The notes beneath the pieces were generated by a model that saw only the letters and a list, made by a program, of their open reading frames with translations, made no database searches and was not told the DNA's origin. From Candidatus Woesearchaeota archaeon (GTDB lineage Archaea; Nanobdellota; Nanobdellia; UBA10117; WJKY01), in the NCBI GenBank assembly GCA_014728835.1, contig WJKY01000040.1:1-10815 (forward strand): a stretch of DNA of 10,815 nt. The letters run 5' to 3'. This document shows positions 1 to 10,815 of this stretch, one piece after another; position 1 is the first letter of the stretch; every line of letters begins with the position of its first letter. The position numbers were made by a program, and so were the translations under genes.

Positions 1-1
1 C

Positions 2-313
2 GTTAGACCTGCGCCAAAAGAAATTCGTCGCATTAAGAAAAAAATAAAAAAACCAAAGAAAAAACCTAAATTAAAAATTAAGAAAAGAAAATTAAAGAAA
101 AAAGATTTGAGAGCTTACGAAAGAAAACTCAAACAAATTAAAAAATCTGTTTACGAAGAAGTTCGTAAAAACGGTGCTGTAGCTAAAAAATTTAAACCTA
201 AAGTCAAAAAACTGAAAATTAGAAAAAAAACTAGCAAAGGTAAAAAGAAACTCTTTAAAGAACTTTCGAAACTAGAAAAAGATATGAAGAAAATAGAAAA
301 GGACATTGAATAA
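2..313 (+). CDS. Lysine-rich, highly basic low-complexity protein, C-terminal part (5' end probably outside window)
   Basis: The reading frame is open from the window edge to TAA 311-313; the ORF track only begins it at TTG 107. The product is K/R/E-rich with no recognisable domain. Its stop overlaps the next ATG (TAATG). Confidence 0.4.
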   Translation, partial: VRPAPKEIRRIKKKIKKPKKKPKLKIKKRKLKKKDLRAYERKLKQIKKSVYEEVRKNGAVAKKFKPKVKKLKIRKKTSKGKKKLFKELSKLEKDMKKIEKDIE

Positions 314-1305
314 TGAAAGAAGTAAAAGATATTTCTCCAGATAAACTTACAGCAAATGAATTAGTAAAACAATTATATGAAAGTGGTGGCTTTGTGGCAA
401 AAAAATTAGCTACAGGTGTTAATATTCTTGAAAAGATGACTAAAGATGAAAAATGTATTAAGTTTCTTTCTTTTCCTGCGTGTATAATTTCTACTGGTAC
501 GCGTGGCGTCATTAAAGATTTAGTTAAGAACAAATCAGTTGATGTGTTAATAACTACTTGTGGTACTTTAGATCATGATTTAGCGCGAATTTGGAAACCT
601 TATTGGCATGGCGCATTTGAAGCTGATGATAAAGAACTGCATAAAAAAGGTATTTACAGACTTGGAAATATATTCATACCAAAAGAATCATATGGTGAAA
701 TTTTAGAAAATAAAATTCAACCAGTGCTGAAAAATATGTATGAGAATAAAAAAGAATTATCTGGAAAAGAATTTATTTGGGAGCTTGGAAAAGCATTAGA
801 AAATGAAGAAAACAAAGAAAGTTCAATTATTTATTGGGCGTGGAAAAATAAAATCCCTGTTTTTGTGCCTGGAATCACTGATGGTGCTGTTGGTTCTCAA
901 CTTTGGTTATTCAGACAAAAACATTCTGATTTTAAAATAGATTTGCTTGCTGATGAAAATGATTTGTCAAATATTGTTTTTGACGCCCAAATAAAGCAAA
1001 GTTCCACTGGGCCCAGAAAAACTAATGGTTTTTCTCGGGCTAAAAAACTAGGGGCTTTGATGCTTGGTGGTGGAATTTCAAAACATCATACTATCTGGTG
1101 GGCGCAATTTGGTCACGGACTTGATTATGCTGTTTACATTACAACTGCAGTTGAATGGGACGGGAGTCTTAGCGGAGCTGAAACAAAGGAAGCTATTAGC
1201 TGGGGAAAGATTAAAGAACAAGGAATGCATATAACTATTAACGGAGATATAACAATCTTGTTGCCGCTGATGATATCTGCGCTCAAAGAAAGATTAGGAG
1301 GGTAA
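313..1305 (+). CDS. dys: Deoxyhypusine synthase
   Basis: The 330-aa product carries family hallmarks: TTCGTLDHDL, GITDGAVGS, LGGGISKHH, and the catalytic-lysine motif EAISWGKIK near the C-terminus. It aligns from memory to human DHS ([17 protein letters not shown]). Confidence 0.9.
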   Translation: MKEVKDISPDKLTANELVKQLYESGGFVAKKLATGVNILEKMTKDEKCIKFLSFPACIISTGTRGVIKDLVKNKSVDVLITTCGTLDHDLARIWKPYWHGAFEADDKELHKKGIYRLGNIFIPKESYGEILENKIQPVLKNMYENKKELSGKEFIWELGKALENEENKESSIIYWAWKNKIPVFVPGITDGAVGSQLWLFRQKHSDFKIDLLADENDLSNIVFDAQIKQSSTGPRKTNGFSRAKKLGALMLGGGISKHHTIWWAQFGHGLDYAVYITTAVEWDGSLSGAETKEAISWGKIKEQGMHITINGDITILLPLMISALKERLGG

Positions 1306-1306
1306 A

Positions 1307-1456
1307 GTGTCTGAAGAAAGTCAGGAATTAAAATGTCCAAAATGCGGTAGTGCTGCTTTAAGTGTGTCTACAACTACTATGCCTCACACTACCAAAAAAT
1401 ATAAACGAATCAAATGTTTAAACTGTGGTGTTCAATTTGATAAATTAGATGAATAA
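1307..1456 (+). CDS. Small zinc-ribbon protein (49 aa), not in ORF track
   Basis: GTG start at 1307 lies 5 nt after the SD-like AGGAGGG (1296-1302). Translation: MSEESQELKCPKCGSAALSVSTTTMPHTTKKYKRIKCLNCGVQFDKLDE, with two CxxC knuckles (CPKC, CLNC). It fills the dys-pth2 gap exactly and overlaps the pth2 start by 8 nt. Confidence 0.6.
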   Translation: MSEESQELKCPKCGSAALSVSTTTMPHTTKKYKRIKCLNCGVQFDKLDE

Positions 1457-1820
1457 AATGTATAAACAAGCTATTGTAATTCGGACTGATTTAAACATGT
1501 CGCGGGGAAAGTTATGCTCGCAATCAGCGCATGCTAGTCTTGAGGCTGCTTTGAAAACTCAGAAAACAGATAAAATCTTTAAAACAAAAAATCTAAATGC
1601 GTGGCGCAAAGAAGGTGCAAAAAAAATTGTTTTAAAAGTCATGTCCGAATCTGCACTAATTAAAATCAGAGATAAAGCTGTTCGTGCAGGCTTAAAATCT
1701 GCACTAATTAAAGATGCTGGTTTTACAGAACTGCCAGCAGGAACAATTACCGCAATTGCTATTGGACCTGATAAAGAAAAAGAAATTGATAAAATAACTA
1801 GTAATTTATCTACGTTATGA
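1449..1820 (+). CDS. pth2: Peptidyl-tRNA hydrolase, archaeal/eukaryotic PTH2 type
   Basis: N-terminal KQAIVIRTDLNMSRGKLCSQSAHAS and C-terminal DAGFTELPAGTITAIAIGP match the PTH2 signature. An alternative start is ATG 1458. Confidence 0.88.
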   Translation: MNKMYKQAIVIRTDLNMSRGKLCSQSAHASLEAALKTQKTDKIFKTKNLNAWRKEGAKKIVLKVMSESALIKIRDKAVRAGLKSALIKDAGFTELPAGTITAIAIGPDKEKEIDKITSNLSTL

Positions 1821-2504
1821 TTATTTTTTCACTAATTTTGCTTTTTTGATAACATATTGCCCGTGGTCGCCCTTCCAAATTTTTTCAGCTTCTTGGATTT
1901 CTATTTTTTTCTTAAAAACAGGACCATCTAAAACTATTGTTTCAAATTCTCCACCTTCCCCTGAAAGATGAATTCCATATCTTTGATGCATTAATTTTAA
2001 TTTTTCAAGAGTTTCTGTATTTAATTCTCTGCCAAGCCAGGACTCATCAAAACCATGTGCAGAAACAGATGTAATAATTACTTTAAAACCAGCTTTAATA
2101 AGTTCTGTAAGATATATTTCAGGGTCTAAATGCCAAAGCAAAGCTAAGCTTCGTAGCCCCAAATCACTGCATATTGCTTCGATTCTAAATCTTTGATATT
2201 GTGATGCTACTGCACCTGAAACTACGCCTTCTATTTTGTAATCTCGCATTGCTTTTTTTAGTGCTAATTCAAGGTCTTTTAGTTCTTTTTCTTTTATTCC
2301 TTTTGTTTTTCTAAATATAATAGGGATTCCAATAGCTTTTGCTTGTAATTTAACCATATCTATATTGGGAATGTGAAACATGTAAGAATATGGATTTTCT
2401 GATTTTATTGCTACTAAAACAGCAATATCTCTACCTTGTTCTATTGCTCTATGGAGCGCAAAAACGCTGTCTTTGCCACCGCTGAATAAAACTGCAACTT
2501 TCAT
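1821..2504 (-). CDS. dph6: PP-loop ATP-binding protein of the MJ0570/Dph6 family (putative diphthine-ammonia ligase)
   Basis: MKVAVLFSGGKDS is a PP-loop motif, and SGEGGEFETIVLDGP is typical of the family. I place the start at ATG 2504, which is preceded by AGAGGGTG, rather than at the track's TTG 2540. Confidence 0.8.
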   Translation of the reverse strand: MKVAVLFSGGKDSVFALHRAIEQGRDIAVLVAIKSENPYSYMFHIPNIDMVKLQAKAIGIPIIFRKTKGIKEKELKDLELALKKAMRDYKIEGVVSGAVASQYQRFRIEAICSDLGLRSLALLWHLDPEIYLTELIKAGFKVIITSVSAHGFDESWLGRELNTETLEKLKLMHQRYGIHLSGEGGEFETIVLDGPVFKKKIEIQEAEKIWKGDHGQYVIKKAKLVKK

Positions 2505-2673
2505 AAAAACACCCTCTTTAGCGGGAAATTGTAGTCTCAATTAAACAATATAAACTTTTGGGAAAAACCGAATTCTTTTAAAATACTTATTTTGACTTTA
2601 AATTAGCAGAATCTTCGAATGCCCTAACAAAATCTAGGGACATAAGAACTGCTGTTAACTGGCGGAATCAGTT

Positions 2674-2782
2674 GCGTCGGTAGTCTAGTCTGGTAGGACT
2701 CTGGCCTTCCATATCGTGAAAAGAAATTTTCGCGGAATTCTGGAGAAAGCCAGCGACGTGGGTTCAAATCCCGCCCGACGCA
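2674..2782 (+). tRNA. tRNA-Gly(UCC) with one canonical 37/38 intron
   Basis: Acceptor GCGTCGG/CCGACGC plus discriminator A. D-arm GTCT-AGTCTGGTA-GGAC. Anticodon stem CTGGC/GCCAG with loop CT-TCC-A[intron]A. T-arm GTGGG-TTCAAAT-CCCGC. Mature length is 73 nt after removing 2712-2747. Confidence 0.85.
2712..2747 (+). other. tRNA-Gly intron (36 nt), BHB-type, position 37/38
   Basis: Central 4-bp helix C2706-G2745, T2707-A2744, T2708-G2743, C2709-G2742, flanked by 3-nt bulges CAT (2710-2712) and AAA (2746-2748). The intron core is an 8-bp hairpin 2715-2734 capped by a GAAA tetraloop. Confidence 0.7.
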
Positions 2783-2785
2783 TTT

Positions 2786-3931
2786 CTATAATCTTGCCAT
2801 TGCAAAGTATATGGCTGCGATAGCAGCAATTGCAAAAGCTATCTTAAATTTAAGCAAAAGCGGCACCAATATTAAGAAAAATAATGCTATAGTGCGACCT
2901 GAACAATAAGATAAATCTCTAAAACTCATAAATTCTGTTCTAGTACCTGGTTTTAAATTATCACAAAAGAATGTGAACATTGGTATTGCGATCCCTGTCC
3001 AACCCACACCTATGAAAAAAGACATGCCATATATTGCAAATGGGTTTGTAATAAAAATCAAACCAATAAAAACCAGTGATAGTATTATTGCGCTAGCTCT
3101 CATAATTGCTTTTTTGCCGAATTTATCAGTTGCCCTGCCCAATAAAATTGCGCAAATAGCTATTCCCAAACTCATCAGAGATACTGCTGCGCCAGTAATT
3201 GAAAAGTTCTGACTGAGTGTGAATATATAAATAGGAAACATTACAAATACAGGCACCATTACAAAACCTTGGACAAAGAAATCATCAAACCAATGTAAAT
3301 TTTTTTTGCTAAATATTTGTTTCCATTTGTATTTCATGTGGCTTTTATATTCGTAACTTAAAAAAAGTGGGGCAACAGAAACTAAAAGTAAAACTGCTGC
3401 AATTAAAAATAAAAGACTAAATCCAAATGAAGCTATCATAACTCCACCAATAAAAGGCGCTGTTACAGCTGCAACTTTTGGTAAAGCTGTAAATAAACCT
3501 GTTTCAGTTCCTCTGCGTCCTTTATTACTTGATTTGGTAAAATGTGAATTCATCGGAACCCAATATATAATTGCTCCTATGGCGCCGACAATTGCAATCG
3601 GATACAATGGTAAATTTATTTCTCCTATGCTACGCAAAAGTAAAAGATAAACAATAGTAAGGCCAGGACCTATTGCAATTGTATGTTTCAGGCCAGCTTT
3701 TGAAGATATAACTGATACAATTGGAGCAAAAATCGCCATTGTTAAATAAAAAATAGCTAAATAAAATAGGGCTTGATTAAGTTCATATCCAAGATTTAAT
3801 AAATACATTGGAATAAAAACCGAAACTAATGATAAAGAAAATGCTCTCATGATTGTTGCAGCATATATTTCTTTAAGTTCTTTTTTTATTTTAGTCAGTG
3901 ACAATTTATGCAATAATAAATTATAGGGCAT
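2786..3931 (-). CDS. MFS-type membrane transporter
   Basis: 381 aa, almost entirely hydrophobic with about 10-12 predicted helices. It has an MFS motif-A-like loop, LLGRATDKFGKKAIM. Substrate is unknown. Confidence 0.7.
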   Translation of the reverse strand: MPYNLLLHKLSLTKIKKELKEIYAATIMRAFSLSLVSVFIPMYLLNLGYELNQALFYLAIFYLTMAIFAPIVSVISSKAGLKHTIAIGPGLTIVYLLLLRSIGEINLPLYPIAIVGAIGAIIYWVPMNSHFTKSSNKGRRGTETGLFTALPKVAAVTAPFIGGVMIASFGFSLLFLIAAVLLLVSVAPLFLSYEYKSHMKYKWKQIFSKKNLHWFDDFFVQGFVMVPVFVMFPIYIFTLSQNFSITGAAVSLMSLGIAICAILLGRATDKFGKKAIMRASAIILSLVFIGLIFITNPFAIYGMSFFIGVGWTGIAIPMFTFFCDNLKPGTRTEFMSFRDLSYCSGRTIALFFLILVPLLLKFKIAFAIAAIAAIYFAMARL

Positions 3932-3981
3932 ATTTTTATGTAGGGGATAGTATTTTTAAAGCCTTTTTACTAAAATTTATC

Positions 3982-4620
3982 ATGACAAAAATAATATTTG
4001 TGGCGCATGCTGATGATGGTGTGCTTGGATGCGGCGGAACAATTGCAAAACTTATCAGGCAAAAAGAAAAAGTAATTGTTGTTGTACTTTTTTCTGAAGA
4101 AAATAATCATACTCTGCTAGATACTTCTATTTTAAAAGAGCGGAAAACAAAAGAAGCAAAACGCGCATTTGGATTGCTTGGATGCAATAATATTATTTTT
4201 TTAGGTTTAAAAGAACTAAAAATAAAAAAGCAAATTAAAAACTCTAAAGTCATCAATAAAATTGAAAAAATTTTAGAGAAATATAAACCATATACTATTT
4301 TTACACATGCTCCTGATGATCCTCATCCTGCGCATAGAATAGTTACTGAATTAATTAAAAAAATGCTTATAAAATCAAAGCAAAAAATTGAAATATATAC
4401 ATTTACAATATCAACTCCGTTCAGGCTAATTAAACGAAACAGGCCTAAACTATATATTGACATTAGCAAAACTTACAAATTAAAAAATAAAGCATTGGAG
4501 ATGTTTAAGAGTCAAAGAAGTTTTATGCTTTATTATAAGAGTATAGTATGGCTGCGTAATTGGTTGGGCGGATTTAAAGCTGGCAGCAAATATGCTGAAG
4601 TTTTTACAAAAGATAAGTAG
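3982..4620 (+). CDS. PIG-L/LmbE-family deacetylase
   Basis: MTKIIFVAHADDGVLGCGGTIAK matches the AHPDDE-like motif, and HAPDDPHPAHRIV matches the HPDH-like motif. The start is moved to ATG 3982; the track's GTG 3898 extension would overlap the divergent MFS gene. Confidence 0.78.
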   Translation: MTKIIFVAHADDGVLGCGGTIAKLIRQKEKVIVVVLFSEENNHTLLDTSILKERKTKEAKRAFGLLGCNNIIFLGLKELKIKKQIKNSKVINKIEKILEKYKPYTIFTHAPDDPHPAHRIVTELIKKMLIKSKQKIEIYTFTISTPFRLIKRNRPKLYIDISKTYKLKNKALEMFKSQRSFMLYYKSIVWLRNWLGGFKAGSKYAEVFTKDK

Positions 4621-4622
4621 TT

Positions 4623-4630
4623 TTTTAAAT
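4623..4630 (+). promoter_or_regulatory. TATA-box-like element for tRNA-Arg
   Basis: TTTTAAAT is centred about 25 nt upstream of tRNA position 1 (4651). T-runs at 4621-4626 and 4642-4647 could also terminate the upstream CDS. Confidence 0.45.
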
Positions 4631-4667
4631 GAAATATGTGGTTTTTTATTGCTCCTGTAGCTCAGTC

Positions 4668-4752
4668 ACAGCTGAAAGGTCAGCTGGCACCCTGTGCACA
4701 TTCCTTTGAAATGTACAGCGGTTTTGCCGAACACGACCTTTGGTTGCTGAAT
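4668..4752 (+). other. tRNA-Arg intron 1 (about 85 nt) in the D-loop, just 5' of G18G19
   Basis: 4-bp helix TCAG(4662-4665)/CTGA(4747-4750) with 3-nt bulges TCA (4666-4668) and ATT (4751-4753). The inner helix includes AAAGGTC(4675-4681)/GACCTTT(4735-4741). Exact junctions are uncertain by 1-2 nt. Confidence 0.6.
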
Positions 4753-4774
4753 TGGATAGAGCACTTCCCTCCTA

Positions 4775-4793
4775 GAACTAAAAAGTTAGAGAA
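4775..4793 (+). other. tRNA-Arg intron 2 (19 nt), canonical 37/38
   Basis: Central helix C4769-G4791, T4770-A4790, C4771-G4789 plus a C.A mismatch. Bulges are TAG (4773-4775) and AAA (4792-4794). Inner helix is AAC(4776-4778)/GTT(4785-4787). Confidence 0.7.
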
Positions 4794-4815
4794 AGGAAGG
4801 AGTCGTGGGTTCAAA

Positions 4816-4857
4816 GGTCGGGCGCTTCCGACAGCTTATGAAGCGTTGACTTGAAAG
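4816..4857 (+). other. tRNA-Arg intron 3 (42 nt) in the T-loop, position 59/60
   Basis: T-loop TTCA(4810-4813) pairs with TGAA(4852-4855). The 3' bulge is AGT (4856-4858) and the 5' bulge is AAG (4814-4816). Inner helix is GTC(4817-4819)/GAC(4848-4850). Removal restores T-loop TTCAAAT and T-stem GTGGG/CCCAT. Confidence 0.65.
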
Positions 4858-4871
4858 TCCCATCAGGAGCA

Positions 4872-6491
4872 CTATCTTGTAAAAGAAATATCTTTGCCAG
4901 ATACTAAAGCATCTAAAACTTGTCTGCCGAGTTTTGATTTTTTGTAGATTCTTGCTGTGCCTTTCCGGTTTACAGACAAAGTTTTGATTGGTTTATTATT
5001 TATTTGTAAATTAACTGATCTTACGCGGTCTTTAAAATAAAAATTAATGAATTTTTTTGTTTCTTTTATTCTATAGGGAATACTCATTTGTGTGCGCCCT
5101 CTTCTGCGTTTTTTAATTGGCACAACAACTGTGTGTTCGCCATAAGAATAAATTTCATATTCGAGTTGACCAGTTTCAAAATCATTAACTTCAACTATTG
5201 GTCTTGCTAAATCAGCTTCTGTCATTCCTGTTGGAACTTTTACTCTCATGCTAAGTTCCAGAACTTTATCAACTTCTCCTTTGTCAATAAAGACAACAGT
5301 GTCAATAATTTGTGGAATCATTCCAAGTTCAACTCTGCCAACAAATCTTTGCACAGCATCAATTGGATTTGTTGCATGAATTACACCAGCTAAACCAATA
5401 CCTGCGAGGCGTAAATCAGCGTAAAGCTTGAAATCATGTGTTGTTCGCATCTCATCAAACATCGTATAATCTGGACGCGTAAGCAAAAGAACATTGTGTA
5501 TGCTTTGCCGGGAGCCAAAATCTTTTGAGTATTGAGTAATTTTATCAGGCACTTGCAAGTCTCTTGGAGATTCAATTGTTTTGATTATTTTATCTTCTTT
5601 AGCATAAAATTTTGCCAGAGCAGCTGTAAAAGTTGTCTTACCAGAACCAGGCGCGCCTGATACTAAAATTCCTGTTGCACTGGTTTTTAATCTTTGTTTT
5701 AATTTATTAGAAAGATTATAATCTTTAAGTTCCAAAGTAGCTACTGGTCGCACAGCAGTAATTTCCCAACCATCTGAAAATGGTGGTTTGCAAATAACTA
5801 TTCTAAAATTTTTAAACTGAACAATATTTATTCCTGGACTAGAGATCTCAATAAAAGCGCCTTGTGTAAGTTTTGTTTTTTCAATTATGTCTGCAGCAAA
5901 AACTTTTACATCATGTGCGCTAAGTTTTGTTTTTCTAAGTAATTTAAACTGCCATTTACCTGGTTTTCCTTGTTTTGCAAGAGGTATTGAATCTTCTTTC
6001 AGATGCACAGACATTGTATTTGGAGTAAAAAATTTTTCAATGTCTAGAGCTTTAATTTTTTTTGCTGAAACAGGTAGTATAAGAATTGTTTTAATGCCCA
6101 TTGCTTCGGCAACTAAAGATTGTACGCGATCTGCAGTAATCAAAACTGCGCGTTTGTCATATGCTATACTACGAATCATATCATCAATTGCGCCCGCATG
6201 TGCGCGTTTAATATGCCATTCTTTTGGTCGTTCACCTTCATAATCTAAATGAATTTTCTTTTTCTTTGCAAGCTCTCTAAGCGATGTTATTTCTTCCAAA
6301 CCAATAAAACCTTCAGATTGATTTTGATTTGCTTGGTTTTCTAATTCTGCAAGAACTGCACGCGGAATAATGATTTTGCCTGCAATTTTTTTCTTTTTAA
6401 CTAAATCAGAAACTTTGCGTTCAATAACTATAGATGTATCTACTACATATGTTTTTCTTGATAATTTGGTGGCTTTTTTCTTTTTTTTCAT
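4872..6491 (-). CDS. PIN-domain / PilT-type (VirB11-like) ATPase, archaeal COG1855-like
   Basis: N-terminal PIN domain: YVVDTSIVIE, AVLAELE, LITADRVQSLVAEAMGI. ATPase core: Walker A GAPGSGKTT, TIESPRDLQ, Walker-B-like RPDYTMFDEMR, and GVIHATNPIDAVQRF. I place the start at ATG 6491, which forms an ATGA overlap with the upstream stop. Confidence 0.8.
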   Translation of the reverse strand: MKKKKKATKLSRKTYVVDTSIVIERKVSDLVKKKKIAGKIIIPRAVLAELENQANQNQSEGFIGLEEITSLRELAKKKKIHLDYEGERPKEWHIKRAHAGAIDDMIRSIAYDKRAVLITADRVQSLVAEAMGIKTILILPVSAKKIKALDIEKFFTPNTMSVHLKEDSIPLAKQGKPGKWQFKLLRKTKLSAHDVKVFAADIIEKTKLTQGAFIEISSPGINIVQFKNFRIVICKPPFSDGWEITAVRPVATLELKDYNLSNKLKQRLKTSATGILVSGAPGSGKTTFTAALAKFYAKEDKIIKTIESPRDLQVPDKITQYSKDFGSRQSIHNVLLLTRPDYTMFDEMRTTHDFKLYADLRLAGIGLAGVIHATNPIDAVQRFVGRVELGMIPQIIDTVVFIDKGEVDKVLELSMRVKVPTGMTEADLARPIVEVNDFETGQLEYEIYSYGEHTVVVPIKKRRRGRTQMSIPYRIKETKKFINFYFKDRVRSVNLQINNKPIKTLSVNRKGTARIYKKSKLGRQVLDALVSGKDISFTR

Positions 6492-6841
6492 ATTTGCTTT
6501 TGTTTTTCTAATCGCACCCAATTAATAAATGCTTTGACTCGTTTATGAGCTTTTTCTATATCTAATTTATTTACGTGGCGCCTTGTAGACATTTTCCAAA
6601 GCTCTAAGAAATATGCTGAGAATTCTTTTTCTTGTTCTGATGAAGATTTTTCTAATTGTTTTTGTATTAACATAGGACTTACTTTGCTATGGCTATCTAA
6701 ATCAAAATGTTCTGCAACAGCTAAATTAGCTGCTTTTAAAATATGATTTAAAATTGCTGGCAAATAATCTTCAGCATTTGCTCTGCATAAAAGAAAATCT
6801 GCTAATTTTAATTTCTCATTTGCTTTGTCTAATTTACTCAT
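6488..6841 (-). CDS. Hypothetical small alpha-helical protein (117 aa), paralog of the upstream ORF
   Basis: The ORF is translationally coupled on both sides (ATGAGTAA overlap upstream, ATGA downstream). It shares the motifs LADFLL and AILNHILKAANLA with the 161-aa neighbour. I recognise no family. Confidence 0.6.
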   Translation of the reverse strand: MSKLDKANEKLKLADFLLCRANAEDYLPAILNHILKAANLAVAEHFDLDSHSKVSPMLIQKQLEKSSSEQEKEFSAYFLELWKMSTRRHVNKLDIEKAHKRVKAFINWVRLEKQKQI

Positions 6842-7319
6842 TTTTAATCACTGCTTTAATATCATTTACAAATTTTCTAGTAACACTAGAATATCTTTTT
6901 ACTGAGTTCAAATCTAATGTGGCTGTATCATAATCGTGAGACGTCAATATATATTTATTGCCGCGTCTGAATCGCATTGTGCCGTTTTTGTCGTATTTAT
7001 AAACTTCTAATAATTTGCCAAGTAATCTGTAATACTTAGGATCAAATTTGTATTTTTCTTCTAATTTTTGCCTGTAAATGCTGATTTCCATGGCAAAATT
7101 TTTTGGATATGCTTCTATTTGTTTGTAATATCTTTCATATTCTAGCAAAGATTGTAATGCTGCTCTGCTAGCAGTTATTATGTGCCCTGCTATAGCTAGC
7201 AAGAACTTTGTTTCTTTAATCATTGGATAAGTCATATAAAGAAGATGATCTGCAACTTCGATTTCTTTTTTTGCTATCTGCATAAGTTGCTCATGTTTGG
7301 TGTCTAACCTCGCTACCAT
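6834..7319 (-). CDS. Hypothetical alpha-helical protein (161 aa), first gene of the three-gene operon
   Basis: Clean ORF with codon usage like its neighbours. Motifs VADHLL and LAIAGHIITASRAA parallel those in the 117-aa ORF. I recognise no family. Confidence 0.6.
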   Translation of the reverse strand: MVARLDTKHEQLMQIAKKEIEVADHLLYMTYPMIKETKFLLAIAGHIITASRAALQSLLEYERYYKQIEAYPKNFAMEISIYRQKLEEKYKFDPKYYRLLGKLLEVYKYDKNGTMRFRRGNKYILTSHDYDTATLDLNSVKRYSSVTRKFVNDIKAVIKNE

Positions 7320-7365
7320 AGTTTATTTTAAGTAGTAATCTTATTTAATTTTTTAGGTAAGAAAC

Positions 7366-7372
7366 TTTATAT
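7366..7372. promoter_or_regulatory. TATA-like element (TTTATAT) between divergent transcription units
   Basis: It is near-palindromic and AT-rich. It lies about 45-50 nt upstream of the minus-strand ATG 7319 and upstream of the plus-strand GC-rich RNA region. A second TATA-like GTATAT sits at 7394-7399. Confidence 0.35.
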
Positions 7373-7550
7373 GTCCGTCGCTGCAATGCCTCAGTATATC
7401 CGCAACCGCGGTGAAGGTAAGCGCATTCCCCAATTCGAACGAAGTTCGAATGGGCCCCATCGAAACTATGTTTGATTAGGGCTTTGGACTGCACTGCACG
7501 GGATGCCGGCTTTGCCGAGATCGCATCTCGTGTCGCAACGGCGAAACGTT
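7373..7550 (+). ncRNA. Unassigned GC-rich structured RNA candidate directly abutting tRNA-Thr
   Basis: About 55% G+C by hand count, in an AT-rich genome. There are four consecutive strong hairpins at 7429-7454, 7456-7481, 7497-7532 and 7535-7552. There is no credible ORF. Strand is assigned by contiguity with the tRNA and the upstream TATA; the 5' end is uncertain (7373 to about 7421). Confidence 0.5.
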
Positions 7551-7624
7551 GCTTCGGTAGCATAGTCTGGTAATGCGTCTGCCTCGTAAGCAGAAGATCG
7601 AGAGTTCAAATCTCTCCCGGGGCT
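7551..7624 (+). tRNA. tRNA-Thr(CGU), intron-less
   Basis: GCTTCGG TA GCAT AGTCTGGTA ATGC G TCTGC CTCGTAA GCAGA AGATC GAGAG TTCAAAT CTCTC CCGGGGC T, 74 nt. The acceptor stem has two U-G pairs (3:70, 4:69) and the discriminator is U. Confidence 0.88.
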
Positions 7625-7629
7625 TTAAT

Positions 7630-8379
7630 ATGAAACCATTTGATATACATGTGCATTTTGAGGCATTTAAGCCAAAACAAGTAGATGGGCTTATTGCAGA
7701 TGCTAAAAAAGTTTTATCTGGAGCAATAAATCCAGGCACATATCCAAAAGCAAATAGGGTAGTTCTAAAACTAGCTAGAAAATATAAAGATTTTATTTGG
7801 CCTGCATTAGCTGTTCATCCAATTTATCTGCCTAAAATGACTGATGAACAGATAGAACAAGAACTTGATTTTATTTCAAAGCAAAACATTGTTGCGATTG
7901 GTGAAGCTGGTCTGGATTATTTTTGGCTGAAAAAAGTTATTAAGAAAAATGTTGATGAAGAAAAAAAGCGGCAAATTAAGTTTTTCAAAAAGCAAATTAA
8001 ATTAGCAGATAAAATGAATATTCCTATTATTATTCATTCGCGCTGGTCAATTGCTCGCGTTATAAAAATTCTAAAAGAAATGCGTCCTAAAAAAGCTGTG
8101 CTACATGGTTTTAGTGGGAATCTAGAACAAGCAAAAGACATGATTGATTTGGGATATATGCTATCTAATGGTCCGCGAGTTAGGGAATTTTTTAAGGATT
8201 TGCCTCTGAACAAAATTTTATTAGAAACTGATGCGCCATACATGAAAGTTAATGATAGAAATGCTGCTCCAAAAGATATTCTTTTGGCTGTGAAAAAATT
8301 AGCAGAGCTAAAAAATATTTCAGAGGAAAAAGTAATTAAACAGACAAACAAAAATGTGAAAAAATATTTTGAGATTTAA
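7630..8379 (+). CDS. tatD: TatD-family metal-dependent hydrolase/DNase
   Basis: Family motifs present: DIHVHF, GEAGLDYF, IIIHSR, LHGFSG and LETDAPY. The start is set at ATG 7630, because the track's upstream extension runs through tRNA-Thr. Confidence 0.85.
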   Translation: MKPFDIHVHFEAFKPKQVDGLIADAKKVLSGAINPGTYPKANRVVLKLARKYKDFIWPALAVHPIYLPKMTDEQIEQELDFISKQNIVAIGEAGLDYFWLKKVIKKNVDEEKKRQIKFFKKQIKLADKMNIPIIIHSRWSIARVIKILKEMRPKKAVLHGFSGNLEQAKDMIDLGYMLSNGPRVREFFKDLPLNKILLETDAPYMKVNDRNAAPKDILLAVKKLAELKNISEEKVIKQTNKNVKKYFEI

Positions 8380-9092
8380 CTAACGTAAGAAGCAGTTTCT
8401 TTTTTCTTTTTAACTTTTTTTGCTTTTTGTGTTTGTGCAAGGATGTTTTTTAATTTTTCCTCAAATTTATCTGCTTTTTTTAGCAATGGTTTAGGATCTA
8501 TCTTCAAACCCAAATACTTATCTAAAATTTTAATTATTTTTGCAGCTGCTCTGCTATCTGGCAATTTAGAATGTGTCTCTGCAAAAATAAAGGTTGATTT
8601 AACTTCTTTAGGTAGCTTTAAAATTAGAGCGCCTGAAATACCTAAAATTATTCCTTCTTCTAAAGGATTTAAATCAGCTTTTTCAAGTTTCTTTTTATTT
8701 GAAGATGCGTTAGTATAATAATAAGCTTCAGGTTCTTCTCTCTCTACTGATGAAGCTATGCCTTCCACGCTAATTAATTCTTTTGCATCTAATTTTTTGT
8801 AAAGAGAAGCTATTGCCTTTACTGTCTCCCATTCCATATCTTTTATTCCAGTTAAAGCTTGTAAAACAACAATATTGTGTTTTTTGTTGTAAAAAATCTC
8901 TAATGGTTGTACAACCTTACTATCATGTATAATTGCAACTGGATTAATATCCTCAGATGTAATCTTTCCAATTGATTTGAATTTAAGGTGGTCTAATAAA
9001 TATTCTGTGGCTATAGTTGCTACAAATCCAAAGCCTGGAAAACCTTCAATTATAATTGGATTTTTTGGTGTTTCAGTAAGTTCAACTTTCAT
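8376..9092 (-). CDS. PAC2-family proteasome assembly chaperone
   Basis: The N-terminal PIIIEGFPGFGFVATIATEYLLDHL...IGKI pattern is typical of archaeal PAC2 proteins, and the tail is lysine-rich. The start is set at ATG 9092, preceded by GGGAGAGG; the track's ATG 9119 is probably upstream of the transcription start. Confidence 0.72.
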   Translation of the reverse strand: MKVELTETPKNPIIIEGFPGFGFVATIATEYLLDHLKFKSIGKITSEDINPVAIIHDSKVVQPLEIFYNKKHNIVVLQALTGIKDMEWETVKAIASLYKKLDAKELISVEGIASSVEREEPEAYYYTNASSNKKKLEKADLNPLEEGIILGISGALILKLPKEVKSTFIFAETHSKLPDSRAAAKIIKILDKYLGLKIDPKPLLKKADKFEEKLKNILAQTQKAKKVKKKKETASYVS

Positions 9093-9182
9093 TTGGCCTC
9101 TCCCTAAGTTAAATAGCATAGAATTGCTTTATTTAAATAGATTCCCCTTATAAAAAGCACTTAAAAAAGATAAATCGCAACC

Positions 9183-9190
9183 TTTAAAAA
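9183..9190 (+). promoter_or_regulatory. TATA-box-like element for the 9209-9380 RNA
   Basis: TTTAAAAA is centred about 23-26 nt upstream of G9209, the first base of the long helix. Confidence 0.45.
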
Positions 9191-9208
9191 GGGAAATTAT
9201 GACTTTAA

Positions 9209-9380
9209 GGTAGTGATTCTGGAAGACTACATTAGTAGTCGCAGCAAAGCTTTGCTTTGTTGTGCCCTCCTTCCAGTTCTCACACCTCCTAATTCGGGTT
9301 TTATACTCGAATATCGAGCCTTGAGTTTACTCAAGGTTCATTATAAACTGGCGCAGAAACCTTTGAAACTGCGCCATAAA
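9209..9380 (+). ncRNA. Unassigned structured RNA candidate (three-way junction plus three hairpins), or a long structured leader of the 80-aa ORF
   Basis: A 14-bp long-range helix pairs 9209-9225 with 9270-9286 and encloses hairpins 9226-9239 and 9241-9265. Further hairpins lie at 9292-9312, 9316-9339 (10 bp) and 9349-9376 (8 GC-rich bp). G+C is about 43% by hand count. The overlapping 79-aa ORF has atypical composition. Confidence 0.5.
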
Positions 9381-9397
9381 TACTTAAAGGATGGAAA

Positions 9398-9640
9398 ATG
9401 GGAAAGGAATACGACTTTAATGAAGCTTTTGCAGAAGCATATACAGAACTGATAGGCCCTAAAACTCATAAACGGTCTACTGAAGCACAAATATTATACA
9501 TAAAAGGTGTAAAAGGTCTAGAGCAATATATTGCGCAAAAGAGATTACAAAACCCTGAAATAGCAGATTTCACAGAAAGCGGCATGAAATTAAAAAAGTT
9601 ACTTCATGATATAACTAATCTCGTGTCTAGACTTAACTAA
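9398..9640 (+). CDS. Hypothetical small protein (80 aa)
   Basis: ATG ORF with composition like the neighbouring genes, followed by a T-rich terminator. I recognise no family. Confidence 0.5.
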   Translation: MGKEYDFNEAFAEAYTELIGPKTHKRSTEAQILYIKGVKGLEQYIAQKRLQNPEIADFTESGMKLKKLLHDITNLVSRLN

Positions 9641-9667
9641 TTTTTATTTTTAATTTTTATTTTTAAT
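9638..9667 (+). terminator. T-rich terminator region formed by a perfect 13-nt tandem duplication
   Basis: TAATTTTTATTTT occurs at 9638-9650 and 9651-9663, followed by TAAT. It contains several T4-T5 runs directly after the stop codon, as expected for archaeal oligo-T termination. Confidence 0.5.
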
Positions 9668-9671
9668 AAAG

Positions 9672-9679
9672 CTTATAAA
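9672..9679 (+). promoter_or_regulatory. TATA box for 5S rRNA
   Basis: CTTATAAA is centred about 26 nt upstream of the 5S 5' end. Confidence 0.5.
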
Positions 9680-9700
9680 CCCTTAAAATTCACAAATTAT

Positions 9701-9817
9701 TGTCAGCGGTCAAAGCACCGAGGTAATACCTGATCTCATTTCGAACTCAGAAGTTAAGCTCGGTTACGTTTTGGTGTGTACTTCGTCATACGCGGGAAAG
9801 CCAAAAAGCTGCTGACA
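9701..9817 (+). rRNA. 5S ribosomal RNA (stand-alone gene)
   Basis: Helix I pairs GTCAGCGG (9702-9709) with GCTGCTGAC. The conserved core CCTGATCTCATTTCGAACTCAGAAGTTAAGCTCGG is present. Helix II is ACCGAG/CTCGGT, and helix IV/V is TTTTGG...CCAAAA. Confidence 0.9.
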
Positions 9818-9822
9818 TTATA
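9807..9822 (+). repeat. Direct repeat copy 1 (AGCTGCTGACATTATA), covering the 5S 3' end plus 5 nt
   Basis: Exact 16-nt match to 9957-9972. Confidence 0.9.
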
Positions 9823-9956
9823 ATCTTCCACGATTATGAAGCGGTTCTCACTTCCCAAATCAAATGAAATTCGATTGGGTGTTCGAAAGTCTAAGCAACA
9901 GCCCAAAGTATATTCAACCAAGTTGAATATGCTAGCTCTAGTCCTGAGCGCAGGAC

Positions 9957-9972
9957 AGCTGCTGACATTATA
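9957..9972 (+). repeat. Direct repeat copy 2 (AGCTGCTGACATTATA)
   Basis: Exact 16-nt match to 9807-9822, 150 nt downstream. It lies immediately before the rnp4 TATA-like element. Confidence 0.9.
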
Positions 9973-9973
9973 C

Positions 9974-9981
9974 TTATATAT
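9974..9981 (+). promoter_or_regulatory. TATA-like element for rnp4 (implies a leaderless or near-leaderless mRNA)
   Basis: TTATATAT lies 15-28 nt upstream of the two candidate ATGs (9996, 10002). Confidence 0.4.
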
Positions 9982-9995
9982 TCTTAAATTCTTAG

Positions 9996-10334
9996 ATGAT
10001 TATGGCTCGTAGAACTAAACCTGACTGGCAACAGGAAATTGCTAAGGAGCGAATAAGCATATTATTTAAGGAAGCTCTAAAGCAAGCAAAAGCTGGCAAC
10101 TTGGATAGAGCAAATAGATATGTTTTCTTGGCTCGCAAGTTAAGTATGAAATATCAAGTTCAGATTCCTAAGGCTTTGCGGCGCAAGTTCTGCCATAAAT
10201 GCTATCATTATTTATTGCCTGGCAAAACAGTTAAAGTGCGAACAAATCCTAAAACGCGCGCTGTGGAAATGCAATGCTTGGATTGCAAGCATATTAATCG
10301 CTATCCCTACTCAAAAACTAAGAGGTCCAAATAA
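9996..10334 (+). CDS. rnp4: RNase P protein component 4 (Rpp21/Rpr2 family)
   Basis: EIAKERISILFKEA, NRYVFLARKLSMKY and the zinc-ribbon pattern RRKFCHKCYHYLLPG...VEMQCLDCKHINRYP are typical of Rpp21. An alternative start is ATG 10002. Confidence 0.85.
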   Translation: MIMARRTKPDWQQEIAKERISILFKEALKQAKAGNLDRANRYVFLARKLSMKYQVQIPKALRRKFCHKCYHYLLPGKTVKVRTNPKTRAVEMQCLDCKHINRYPYSKTKRSK

Positions 10335-10815
10335 CTAAATTTTTCTCTTTTGCGTGTGTTTCTAAGCAGTCAAATAAGAAAGAGTGCTTCGTGTCTGGCT
10401 CGTACGGATATGATTCTGCGTAGCCGCTTGAAACCATTTCTGCATTTACAAATAAATCATCTGTATAAAGATAATATAAATAGCGGCCATATTTGCCTGT
10501 CTCAGAAACATCTTGTTCAAGATATAAAGTTTTGTTTAAAGTTAGGCTTCCAAGATAATCGCCAGCTTCTGAGTAATATTCATAACTTTTTTCTGGTGTA
10601 TCAATTCCAATCAAACGAACTTTTTTTCCATTTGTTAAAACAAGTGTATCACCATCAACAATACGCTGAACTTGTGCAGTTGGATAATCTTGCGCGTCTG
10701 CAATTAATTGTGGTATTTCAGCAACTGCATCTTTACAAGTTTGCGGCTCTTCTGAAACACAGCCACTTGCTAAAATTAAAAATATGATTAGAATCAGAAT
10801 TATTTTTCTTTTCAT
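10318..10815 (-). CDS. Secreted/lipid-anchored staphylococcal-type thermonuclease (SNase fold)
   Basis: N-terminal signal with lipobox: MKRKIILILIIFLILASGC. SNase core: VDGDTLVLTNGKKVRLIGIDTPE. The ATG lies at the last bases of the window, so the CDS looks complete. Confidence 0.8.
   Translation of the reverse strand: MKRKIILILIIFLILASGCVSEEPQTCKDAVAEIPQLIADAQDYPTAQVQRIVDGDTLVLTNGKKVRLIGIDTPEKSYEYYSEAGDYLGSLTLNKTLYLEQDVSETGKYGRYLYYLYTDDLFVNAEMVSSGYAESYPYEPDTKHSFLFDCLETHAKEKNLVIWTS

Follow-up and report, generated by a model that had tools for sequence, protein, structure and literature searches.

A predicted small structured RNA gene between PAC2 and 5S rRNA in a narrow clade of DPANN archaea, with a linker resembling the anti-Shine-Dalgarno sequence

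In contig WJKY01000040.1, from a Candidatus Woesearchaeota archaeon (positions 1 to 10,815 of the forward strand, the whole stretch analysed and hereafter the window), the segment 9209-9380, lying between PAC2 and 5S rRNA, very probably contains a gene that encodes a small structured RNA and has its own promoter, as judged from its fold, its promoter and its relatives. The conserved core of this RNA measures ~105 nucleotides (nt) and consists of hairpin P1, an unpaired linker, hairpin P2, a joiner (J2/3) and hairpin P3. The best overall explanation, which we put forward tentatively, is a small RNA (sRNA) gene whose linker, a look-alike of the anti-Shine-Dalgarno sequence of 16S rRNA, would pair with Shine-Dalgarno (SD) tracts. 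An earlier note, made from the letters of the window alone, had drawn attention to the segment as an orphan structured RNA, either an independent sRNA or an unusually long structured 5' leader of the 80-aa open reading frame (ORF) behind it.

The predicted fold is far more stable than expected by chance. On the plus strand, 9209-9380 reaches a minimum free energy (MFE) of -71.2 kcal/mol, compared to -36.0 +/- 3.8 kcal/mol in 200 dinucleotide-preserving shuffles (z = -9.2), and 0 of the 200 shuffles fold as stably; the opposite strand gives a weaker fold (z = -5.5). RNAfold reproduces exactly the architecture drawn in the earlier note, and a direct reading of the sequence together with the fold placed every helix, hairpin and TATA element where they had been reported, including the interrupted helix joining 9209-9225 to 9270-9286 through GGT/ACC, GTGA/TCAC and CTGGAAG/CTTCCAG. 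The features of the element are as follows.

9176-9182, plus strand: BRE-like CGCAACC (transcription factor B recognition element, BRE), read from the sequence
9183-9190, plus strand: TATA box TTTAAAAA, read from the sequence
9209-9211 with 9284-9286, plus strand: outer GGT/ACC pairs (sequence and fold)
9212-9213, plus strand: predicted transcription start (A9212/G9213), inferred at ~25 nt 3' of the TATA centre
9213-9283, plus strand: P1 overall
9213-9216 with 9280-9283, plus strand: P1 lower stem GUGA/UCAC (MFE and RNAalifold)
Between the lower and upper stems, plus strand: P1 internal loop UU/UUC (MFE)
9219-9225 with 9270-9276, plus strand: P1 upper stem CUGGAAG/CUUCCAG (MFE and RNAalifold)
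9226-9239 and 9241-9265, plus strand: two added hairpins at the P1 apex, forming a three-way junction, window only
9283-9291, plus strand: linker CACCUCCUA, of which the ACACCUCC part is invariant; C9283 closes P1, and the linker is unpaired from A9284 on
9292-9312, plus strand: Pi, an inserted hairpin (AUUCGGGU/ACUCGAAU) confined to the window, L036 and L040
9316-9339, plus strand: P2 hairpin GAGCCUUGAG-UUUA-CUCAAGGUUC, kept as a hairpin in 8/8 homologues
9349-9376, plus strand: P3, stem GGCGCAG/CUGCGCC (9350-9356 with 9369-9375) and 12-nt loop AAACCUUUGAAA

Labels such as L036 denote loci recovered by retrieving contigs that encode homologues of the window's PAC2 protein. Every locus whose PAC2 is 68-71% identical to that of the window has the RNA, which adds seven distinct versions on metagenome contigs and brings the homologue set to eight: the window, L002, L003, L004 (identical to L005, L006 and L016), L007, L036, L037 (identical to L038) and L040. 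In all eight, the RNA occupies the same position, between the divergent PAC2 gene and the 5S rRNA gene. Slightly more distant loci, L018, L028 and L034 (PAC2 identity 62-63%), have the 5S rRNA gene directly after PAC2 and no RNA, and L035 (59%) and L001 (47%) are not syntenic with the window. Five minimal versions of the RNA served to build a covariance model, which detected a single copy in each positive locus (63.9-133.1 bits) and, in the 79 kb searched, no credible copy besides these. One weak match at 976-1094 (minus strand; 15.5 bits, E = 0.013), inside a 330-aa ORF at 313-1305, is almost certainly due to chance. Scans of metagenome and viral contig collections with an invariant 18-mer and 19-mer returned a contig known already and chance matches in coding DNA, and no new members. 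The host is an AT-rich DPANN archaeon, as indicated by an intron-bearing tRNA gene, by its PAC2, Rpp21/Rpr2 and TatD genes and by its closest PAC2 relatives, which are labelled Woesearchaeota, Nanoarchaeia or DPANN; among species-representative genomes, the PAC2 query found a Nanobdellota single-cell genome as its sole match, at 47% identity and with a non-syntenic locus. As far as the data go, the RNA appears to form a family restricted to a narrow DPANN clade, with eight distinct sequences so far. P1 and the linker are 97% identical on average, versus 73% DNA identity for the adjacent PAC2 gene. This identity reflects selection and not recent common ancestry.

The promoter is conserved along with the RNA. 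A BRE/TATA signal of the form cgNaaG-CTTTAAAAAGGG, or a close variant, stands at the same 20-nt distance from TAGTG in 8/8 homologues, which bears out the TATA box of its own that had been assigned to the element, and sequence conservation among the homologues sets in at (G/A)TAGTG. From this fixed distance and the onset of conservation, the transcription start is predicted near A9212/G9213. The helix that had been taken to begin at 9209 was therein drawn slightly too long: its outer GGU/ACC pairs are present in the window, but they occur in only 2/8 homologues and probably lie upstream of the transcription start, outside the RNA. At the other end, P3 is followed in L002 by the oligo-T run UUUCUUUUUU and then the 5S promoter, and in L003 and L037 by a T4 run inside the 5S TATA box. 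The G+C profile of the window rises to 0.41-0.45 over the RNA, compared to ~0.27-0.34 in its flanks. In the window the RNA is ~165 nt long, against the ~105 nt of the conserved core, and three inserted hairpins account for the excess.

Within the core, the individual parts are conserved in different ways. In P1 (consensus GUGA-UU-CUGGRAG, loop, CUUCCAG-UUC-UCAC), each of the 11 pairs persists in 8/8 homologues, and two of them show A-U to G.U changes that would be C.A mismatches on the opposite strand and thus fit only the plus strand. The linker ACACCUCC is identical in 8/8 and mostly continues as UGA. P2 is kept as a hairpin in all eight despite differing sequence (GAGCCUUGGG/CCCAAGGUUC, GAGCUCGCC/GGCGAGUUC, GCUUGCC/GGCAAGC and GCUCGC/GCGAGC), and each homologue folds it on its own in single-sequence predictions. 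Six P2 pair positions are altered on both sides in a hand-made alignment, by which P2 was counted because MAFFT and cmalign misplace it in the window and L036 owing to the inserted hairpins. J2/3, the joiner between P2 and P3, is variable, A/U-rich and 10-14 nt long, and the P3 stem GGCGCAG/CUGCGCC is invariant in 7/8, enclosing a semi-conserved loop of 12-13 nt with a recurring A.AAC.UUU.G..A pattern. In the cmalign alignment, 91.9% of cells are paired, compared to 85% when shuffled and 35-49% when the 3' partners are slid, and RNAalifold on five homologues independently recovers P1 and P3. What the comparison shows is the conservation of the RNA and of its P1, P2 and P3 structure, with strand specificity in P1 and compensatory changes in P2.

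Further variation concerns entire hairpins. Pi is shared by the window, L036 and L040, among which two of its pairs are changed on both sides, and L036 has one additional hairpin beyond it. At the P1 apex, the other seven homologues have a plain loop of 5-6 nt (CCCUC, CCCCUC, CCCCU or CAUUU), and the window keeps CCCUC at 9265-9269 beside its inserted apex hairpins. Whole hairpins thus appear to have been gained or lost at the P1 apex and after the linker, as is typical of structured RNAs, and because they come and go at these points, the three-way junction that the earlier note had counted as part of the element is not a functional core of the RNA. A pseudoknot between GAGAAC of the P3 loop and GUUCUC of P1 is not supported: the match is perfect in 4/8 homologues, variation on the loop side goes uncompensated and the site shares nucleotides with P1 pairs. 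A hammerhead-like CUGAUGA in L007 was rejected, as it is not conserved and has no GAAA after it.

The same comparison bears on whether the segment acts as RNA, as DNA or as a coding sequence. A DNA-level feature, such as palindromic protein-binding sites, a recombination or attachment site or a mobile-element remnant, would be in keeping with the turnover of gene content near the RNA, in the interval up to 5S as well as behind 5S, and with the 16-nt direct repeat that flanks a neighbouring element behind the 5S gene. Substitutions creating G.U pairs, however, are tolerated on the plus strand only, the fold is asymmetric between strands, the promoter keeps a fixed distance, each locus has just one copy, always in the same place, and neither flanking repeats nor a transposase are found at the RNA, which leaves this explanation with a very slight chance. 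A protein of 79 aa, read from GTG 9213 to 9452, is the least probable explanation of all, with next to no likelihood. Its frame is open in the window, but L036, L004 and L037 carry 1-3 stops in every plus-strand frame, the indels among the homologues are not multiples of three and some shift the frame, and neither Pfam nor NCBIfam gives a match. On the homologue comparison, the coding reading is already refuted, in agreement with the earlier view that this ORF is not a real protein.

Searches against known families indicate that the RNA is new. With Rfam 15, no family overlapped 9209-9380 at the gathering threshold or at E<=10, and the minimal homologue from L037 gave noise, the best match being RsaH, whose 23 bits fall well short of the gathering score of 50; the Rfam run accords with the initial failure to match the element to signal recognition particle (SRP) RNA, RNase P RNA or any riboswitch. 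None of the Rfam models for riboswitches, Hgc RNAs, ribozymes or rRNA matches the RNA, and tRNA genes, sought with ARAGORN and the Rfam model, were found at 2674-2782 and 7551-7624 and not within the RNA. A box C/D sRNA was rejected as its 5' GUGAUUC is not RUGAUGA, C'/D' boxes are lacking, the size is wrong for the 50-70 nt of that class and the window (with CUAA) and L040 no longer have the CUGA that follows the linker. A box H/ACA sRNA was likewise set aside: the P1 internal loop is merely UU/UUC, with no large pseudouridylation pocket, and P3 is followed by AUA, AUU, UUC, UUU, GCU or AAG and never by ACA. For a reduced form of SRP or RNase P RNA, the Rfam models gave no match and inspection of the 105-nt core showed neither the helix 8 GNAR loop and conserved loops of SRP RNA nor the P4 pseudoknot of RNase P RNA with its CR-I and CR-V sequences. 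Hgc RNAs are GC-rich non-coding RNA islands in AT-rich archaeal genomes (Methanocaldococcus, Pyrococcus), and the RNA resembles them as a GC-rich island of the same kind; they are, however, families in Rfam and do not match it. Literature searches for a described DPANN RNA of such a kind found nothing relevant. Taken together with its distribution, the RNA would be a new, narrow, lineage-specific archaeal sRNA.

The relation of the RNA to the genes around it provides the next line of evidence. The gene order in the window is TatD, PAC2, RNA, 80-aa ORF, 5S rRNA, a non-coding stretch and Rpp21, where Rpp21/Rpr2, PAC2 and TatD were recognised by domain-library matches.

7573-8379, plus strand: TatD
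8376-9119, minus strand: PAC2
9388-9394, plus strand: SD-like AGGAUGG upstream of the 80-aa ORF
9398-9640, plus strand: 80-aa orphan ORF, variable 'cargo' behind the RNA
9641-9668, plus strand: four T5 runs directly ahead of the 5S promoter, at which the transcript of RNA and ORF probably ends (archaeal-type terminator)
9673-9679, plus strand: 5S promoter TTATAAA, read from the sequence
9702-9817, plus strand: 5S rRNA (Rfam)
9996-10334, plus strand: Rpp21

Between 9377 and ATG 9398 the sequence has neither a T-run nor a TATA box, so the reported lack of an oligo-T tract before this ATG holds. Because no terminator or separate promoter precedes the ORF and its start is SD-dependent, the RNA in the window probably also forms the 5' leader of the 80-aa ORF and would be co-transcribed with it. 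The encoded 80-aa protein has no homologue among the 5.8 billion or 1.84 billion proteins of two collections and no family match in Pfam, NCBIfam or PHROGs; a single-sequence AlphaFold model gives three helices at a predicted local distance difference test score (pLDDT) of 68, and the ORF may well be real. The genes behind the RNA differ from locus to locus. The window, L004, L007 and L036 bear four mutually unrelated ORFs, among which BLASTP, Pfam and PHROGs detected no homology, and L002, L003 and L037 have no ORF after the RNA, the 5S promoter coming directly next; one further contig ends too early. Since ORF-bearing and ORF-less loci intermingle across two P2 sequence types, the RNA seems to have been long maintained without any ORF, which argues against a riboswitch or dedicated leader, and we are fairly confident that it is not an ORF-specific riboswitch. 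The proposal of a riboswitch-like regulator of the 80-aa protein is thereby abandoned: the protein is an orphan, and the RNA precedes three other unrelated ORFs and, in three loci, none. The RNA is found at seven other loci, the 80-aa ORF in the window only. What stands of the original alternative of sRNA or leader is an sRNA gene which, in the window, probably serves as a leader too; the dedicated riboswitch does not.

A cis-acting 5' leader controlling the following ORF, as a riboswitch, thermosensor or SD-sequestering element, can still draw on several observations. In the window, L004 and L007, neither a terminator nor a promoter lies between P3 and the ORF, the four ORF-bearing loci have a similar untranslated region (UTR) and start, CUUAAAGGUGAAAAUGG, their ORFs have SDs whereas most window genes do not, and in the MFE structure of the window the linker CCUCCU is paired with the SD. 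The same leader, however, would have to serve mutually unrelated ORFs, one of them a strict orphan, and the ORF-less L002, L003 and L037 keep the RNA with P1 and linker 95-100% identical. SD masking is not predicted in L004, L007 and L036, the internal-loop 'pocket' that riboswitch aptamers show has no conserved counterpart, and no Rfam riboswitch matches, so a purely cis-acting function is decidedly improbable. As regards the cargo ORFs themselves, those of 80, 100, ~159 and 173 aa that sit behind the similar UTR and start have a loose [EK][EK][EK]Y pattern in common at their N-termini. The region around the 5S gene is a gene-turnover hotspot; L018 and L019, for instance, share identical PAC2/5S but differ after 5S.

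The feature that stands out most is the invariant linker. The 3' tail of archaeal 16S rRNA, …GAUCACCUCCU, is the anti-Shine-Dalgarno sequence, and ACACCUCC is identical to its core, with the tail taken in its textbook form. In both, an 8-nt string, CACCUCCU, is single-stranded and directly 3' of a helix. The string is 3'-terminal in 16S rRNA and internal in the RNA, however, and the helix before it is unlike h45 of 16S. Unlike the tail, the RNA is an entity of ~105-170 nt with its own promoter, and it is no rRNA fragment, the Rfam rRNA models giving no match. ACCUCCU is predicted to be unpaired with a probability of 0.9-1.0 in 6/7 computed homologues, and of ~0.7 for ACCU in L002, and a second CCCUC lies in or beside the P1 loop in 7/8. 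When the leader is folded together with the start of the ORF, the MFE structure of the window pairs the linker CCUCCU with AGGAUGG of the ORF. The best matches of the linker in the window are PAC2 (-8.4 kcal/mol) and the 80-aa ORF (-6.9 kcal/mol), which is ordinary SD-level complementarity only. These two are also exceptions in having an SD (GGGAGAGG and AGGAUGG, respectively), since most window genes are without SD-like sequence in the 25 nt before their start, e.g., 3931 (minus strand), 4636 (plus strand), 7319 (minus strand) and Rpp21 at 9996; the cargo ORFs also carry SD-like motifs. Some window genes have an A/T-rich TATA-like box ~25 nt upstream of their ATG, which suggests leaderless mRNAs.

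Based on these features, P1, P2 and P3 would form a scaffold that displays the single-stranded ACACCUCC and the second CCCUC in or beside the P1 loop. The exposed CCUCC motifs could then pair with SD tracts of the GGAGG type and limit the access of ribosomes. In trans, the RNA might act on the minority of SD-led genes, the neighbouring PAC2 gene among them; in cis, where an ORF follows without a terminator, it would become the 5' leader and its motif would mask the SD of that ORF. Archaeal precedents for the masking of ribosome-binding sites (RBS) are sRNA41 and sRNA154 of Methanosarcina mazei (reviewed in PMC5867862). Loop 2 of sRNA154 and sRNA41 compare well with the DPANN RNA, all being archaeal, hairpin-rich, independently transcribed (as predicted for the DPANN RNA) and furnished with an exposed C/U-rich anti-RBS motif; occlusion of SD sites, as by the M. 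mazei sRNAs (PMC5867862), is the action proposed for the DPANN RNA. In contrast, there is no sequence or structural homology, the phylum is different, the DPANN host appears to use few SDs and the invariant P1 and P3 sequence of its RNA suggests an additional partner. Among bacteria, the Firmicute sRNAs RsaE and RNAIII use several C-rich motifs to bind SD sequences. The DPANN RNA resembles them in carrying two exposed C-rich motifs (CCCUC in or beside the P1 loop and CCUCC of the linker) on a multi-hairpin scaffold, but they are bacterial families without homology to it, and the weak RsaH match in Rfam is noise.

Several points weigh against an sRNA that pairs with SD tracts. The anti-SD match was noticed post hoc, and an 8-mer match to the 16S tail is expected by chance in about 1 in 100 RNAs of 105 nt. 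Few genes in the window are SD-led, which leaves few targets for a pairing RNA, and pairing between linker and SD is predicted in the window and not in L004, L007 and L036. With regard to the structure, P1 and P3 show one-sided changes only and no double-sided compensatory changes, and the sample consists of eight related sequences from one clade, in which the P2 covariation rests on the hand-made alignment. Finally, pure seed pairing leaves the invariant sequence of the P1 and P3 stems unexplained, and because these stems are invariant in sequence, recognition by a protein is suggested instead. For these reasons the pairing mechanism, which is inferred, is itself held to be doubtful.

Foremost among the rivals is a scaffold or decoy to which a protein binds, recognising P1 and P3 sequence-specifically, an explanation we consider unlikely on present evidence. 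Both strands and the internal loop of P1 as well as the P3 stem are sequence-invariant and P2 is kept as structure only, a pattern to be expected if a spacer helix links sites that a protein recognises. Palindromes are frequent in the semi-conserved P3 loop (UUUCGAAA, AAACGUUU and UGGCCA), the promoter of the RNA resembles the neighbouring 5S promoter, and the neighbourhood is rich in RNA-processing genes, namely Rpp21 and, in L002 and L007, a Tsr3-like gene. In one variant, the RNA might present its copy of the 16S 3' tail to a factor that ordinarily binds this tail, such as aDim2/Pno1 (KH-domain) or Nob1 (PIN nuclease), of which aDim2 binds the GGAUCACCUCC tail of 16S rRNA; in another, it could be the RNA subunit of some ribonucleoprotein. 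However, the loci compared show no candidate protein whose variation or occurrence follows that of the RNA, and the RNA-less relatives L018, L028 and L034 have the same neighbouring genes. A bolder and quite improbable reading holds that the RNA mimics the 16S 3' tail as a stable decoy, either competing with the small subunit for the few SD-led mRNAs or by titrating Nob1/Dim2-type factors of 16S 3'-end maturation, and that the locus is a promoter-plus-leader platform for fast-turnover orphan genes.

Its constant place immediately upstream of the 5S rRNA gene raises the question of a part in 5S biogenesis, as a pre-5S 5' leader or as a 5S-pairing guide or chaperone, and in L003 and L037 only TTTT inside the 5S TATA box lies between the two. 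Yet 5S has its own BRE/TATA at every locus, up to 570 nt of coding sequence and strong T-runs intervene in four loci, and in close relatives that lack the RNA the same 5S comes right behind PAC2, which makes such a part very unlikely. A role with 5S is grouped with the DNA-level element and the coding gene among the unlikely readings. Duplex predictions for pairing of the P3 loop with 5S found no consistent site, and cognate pairs were no better than non-cognate ones.

On the far side of the 5S rRNA gene lies a second non-coding element (9818-9975, plus strand), which follows 5S directly with no T-run between. It folds better than shuffles (z = -3.7), is conserved over ~80 nt in L036 (1-100, minus strand) and shows a compensatory change in its first hairpin (AUAAUC/GAUUAU in the window versus ACAAUC/GAUUGU in L036). 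Its end repeats that of 5S (3') exactly over 16 nt (AGCTGCTGACATTATA, at 9807-9822 and 9957-9972), so that the 5' strand of 5S helix I could pair with either copy; in the MFE structure of 9695-9985, helix I uses the distal copy. The element may extend pre-5S on its 3' side, or it may be a small insertion that restores the 5S end. No significant kinship with the RNA described here was seen, as only the 8-mer GUUCUCAC is in common (chance ~0.2) and the covariance model gives no match. L002, L003, L004 and L007 are without the post-5S element. In L002 (3009-3497) and L007 (2050-2595), a Tsr3-like gene with a weak Ribo_biogen_C match lies between 5S and Rpp21; the two copies are 85% identical, and the window has the post-5S element in place of this gene.

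Some details of gene annotation in the window were also clarified. The tRNA gene at 2674-2782 (plus strand) has a 38-nt intron and scores 56 bits with the Rfam tRNA model, and ARAGORN misses it. The mechanical start of the TatD ORF at 7573 overlaps tRNA-Thr (7551-7624); the true start is probably further downstream, because the Pfam match begins only at residue 23. For PAC2, homologues start with MK(I/V)EL, and the real start in the window is therefore probably ATG 9092, preceded by GGGAGAGG, and not ATG 9119 (9092-9119, minus strand).

DPANN archaea are uncultivated and have tiny genomes, and to our knowledge almost nothing has been established about their regulatory and structural RNAs. Where a genome is so streamlined, a conserved, separately promoted RNA beside the 5S gene probably has some importance for the cell. 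The invariant look-alike of the anti-SD sequence in this RNA provides a concrete hypothesis on translation control in organisms whose mRNAs appear to be mostly SD-less, and the clean gain and loss of whole hairpins offers a tidy example of modular RNA evolution. As the family is narrow and lineage-specific, its present importance is moderate.

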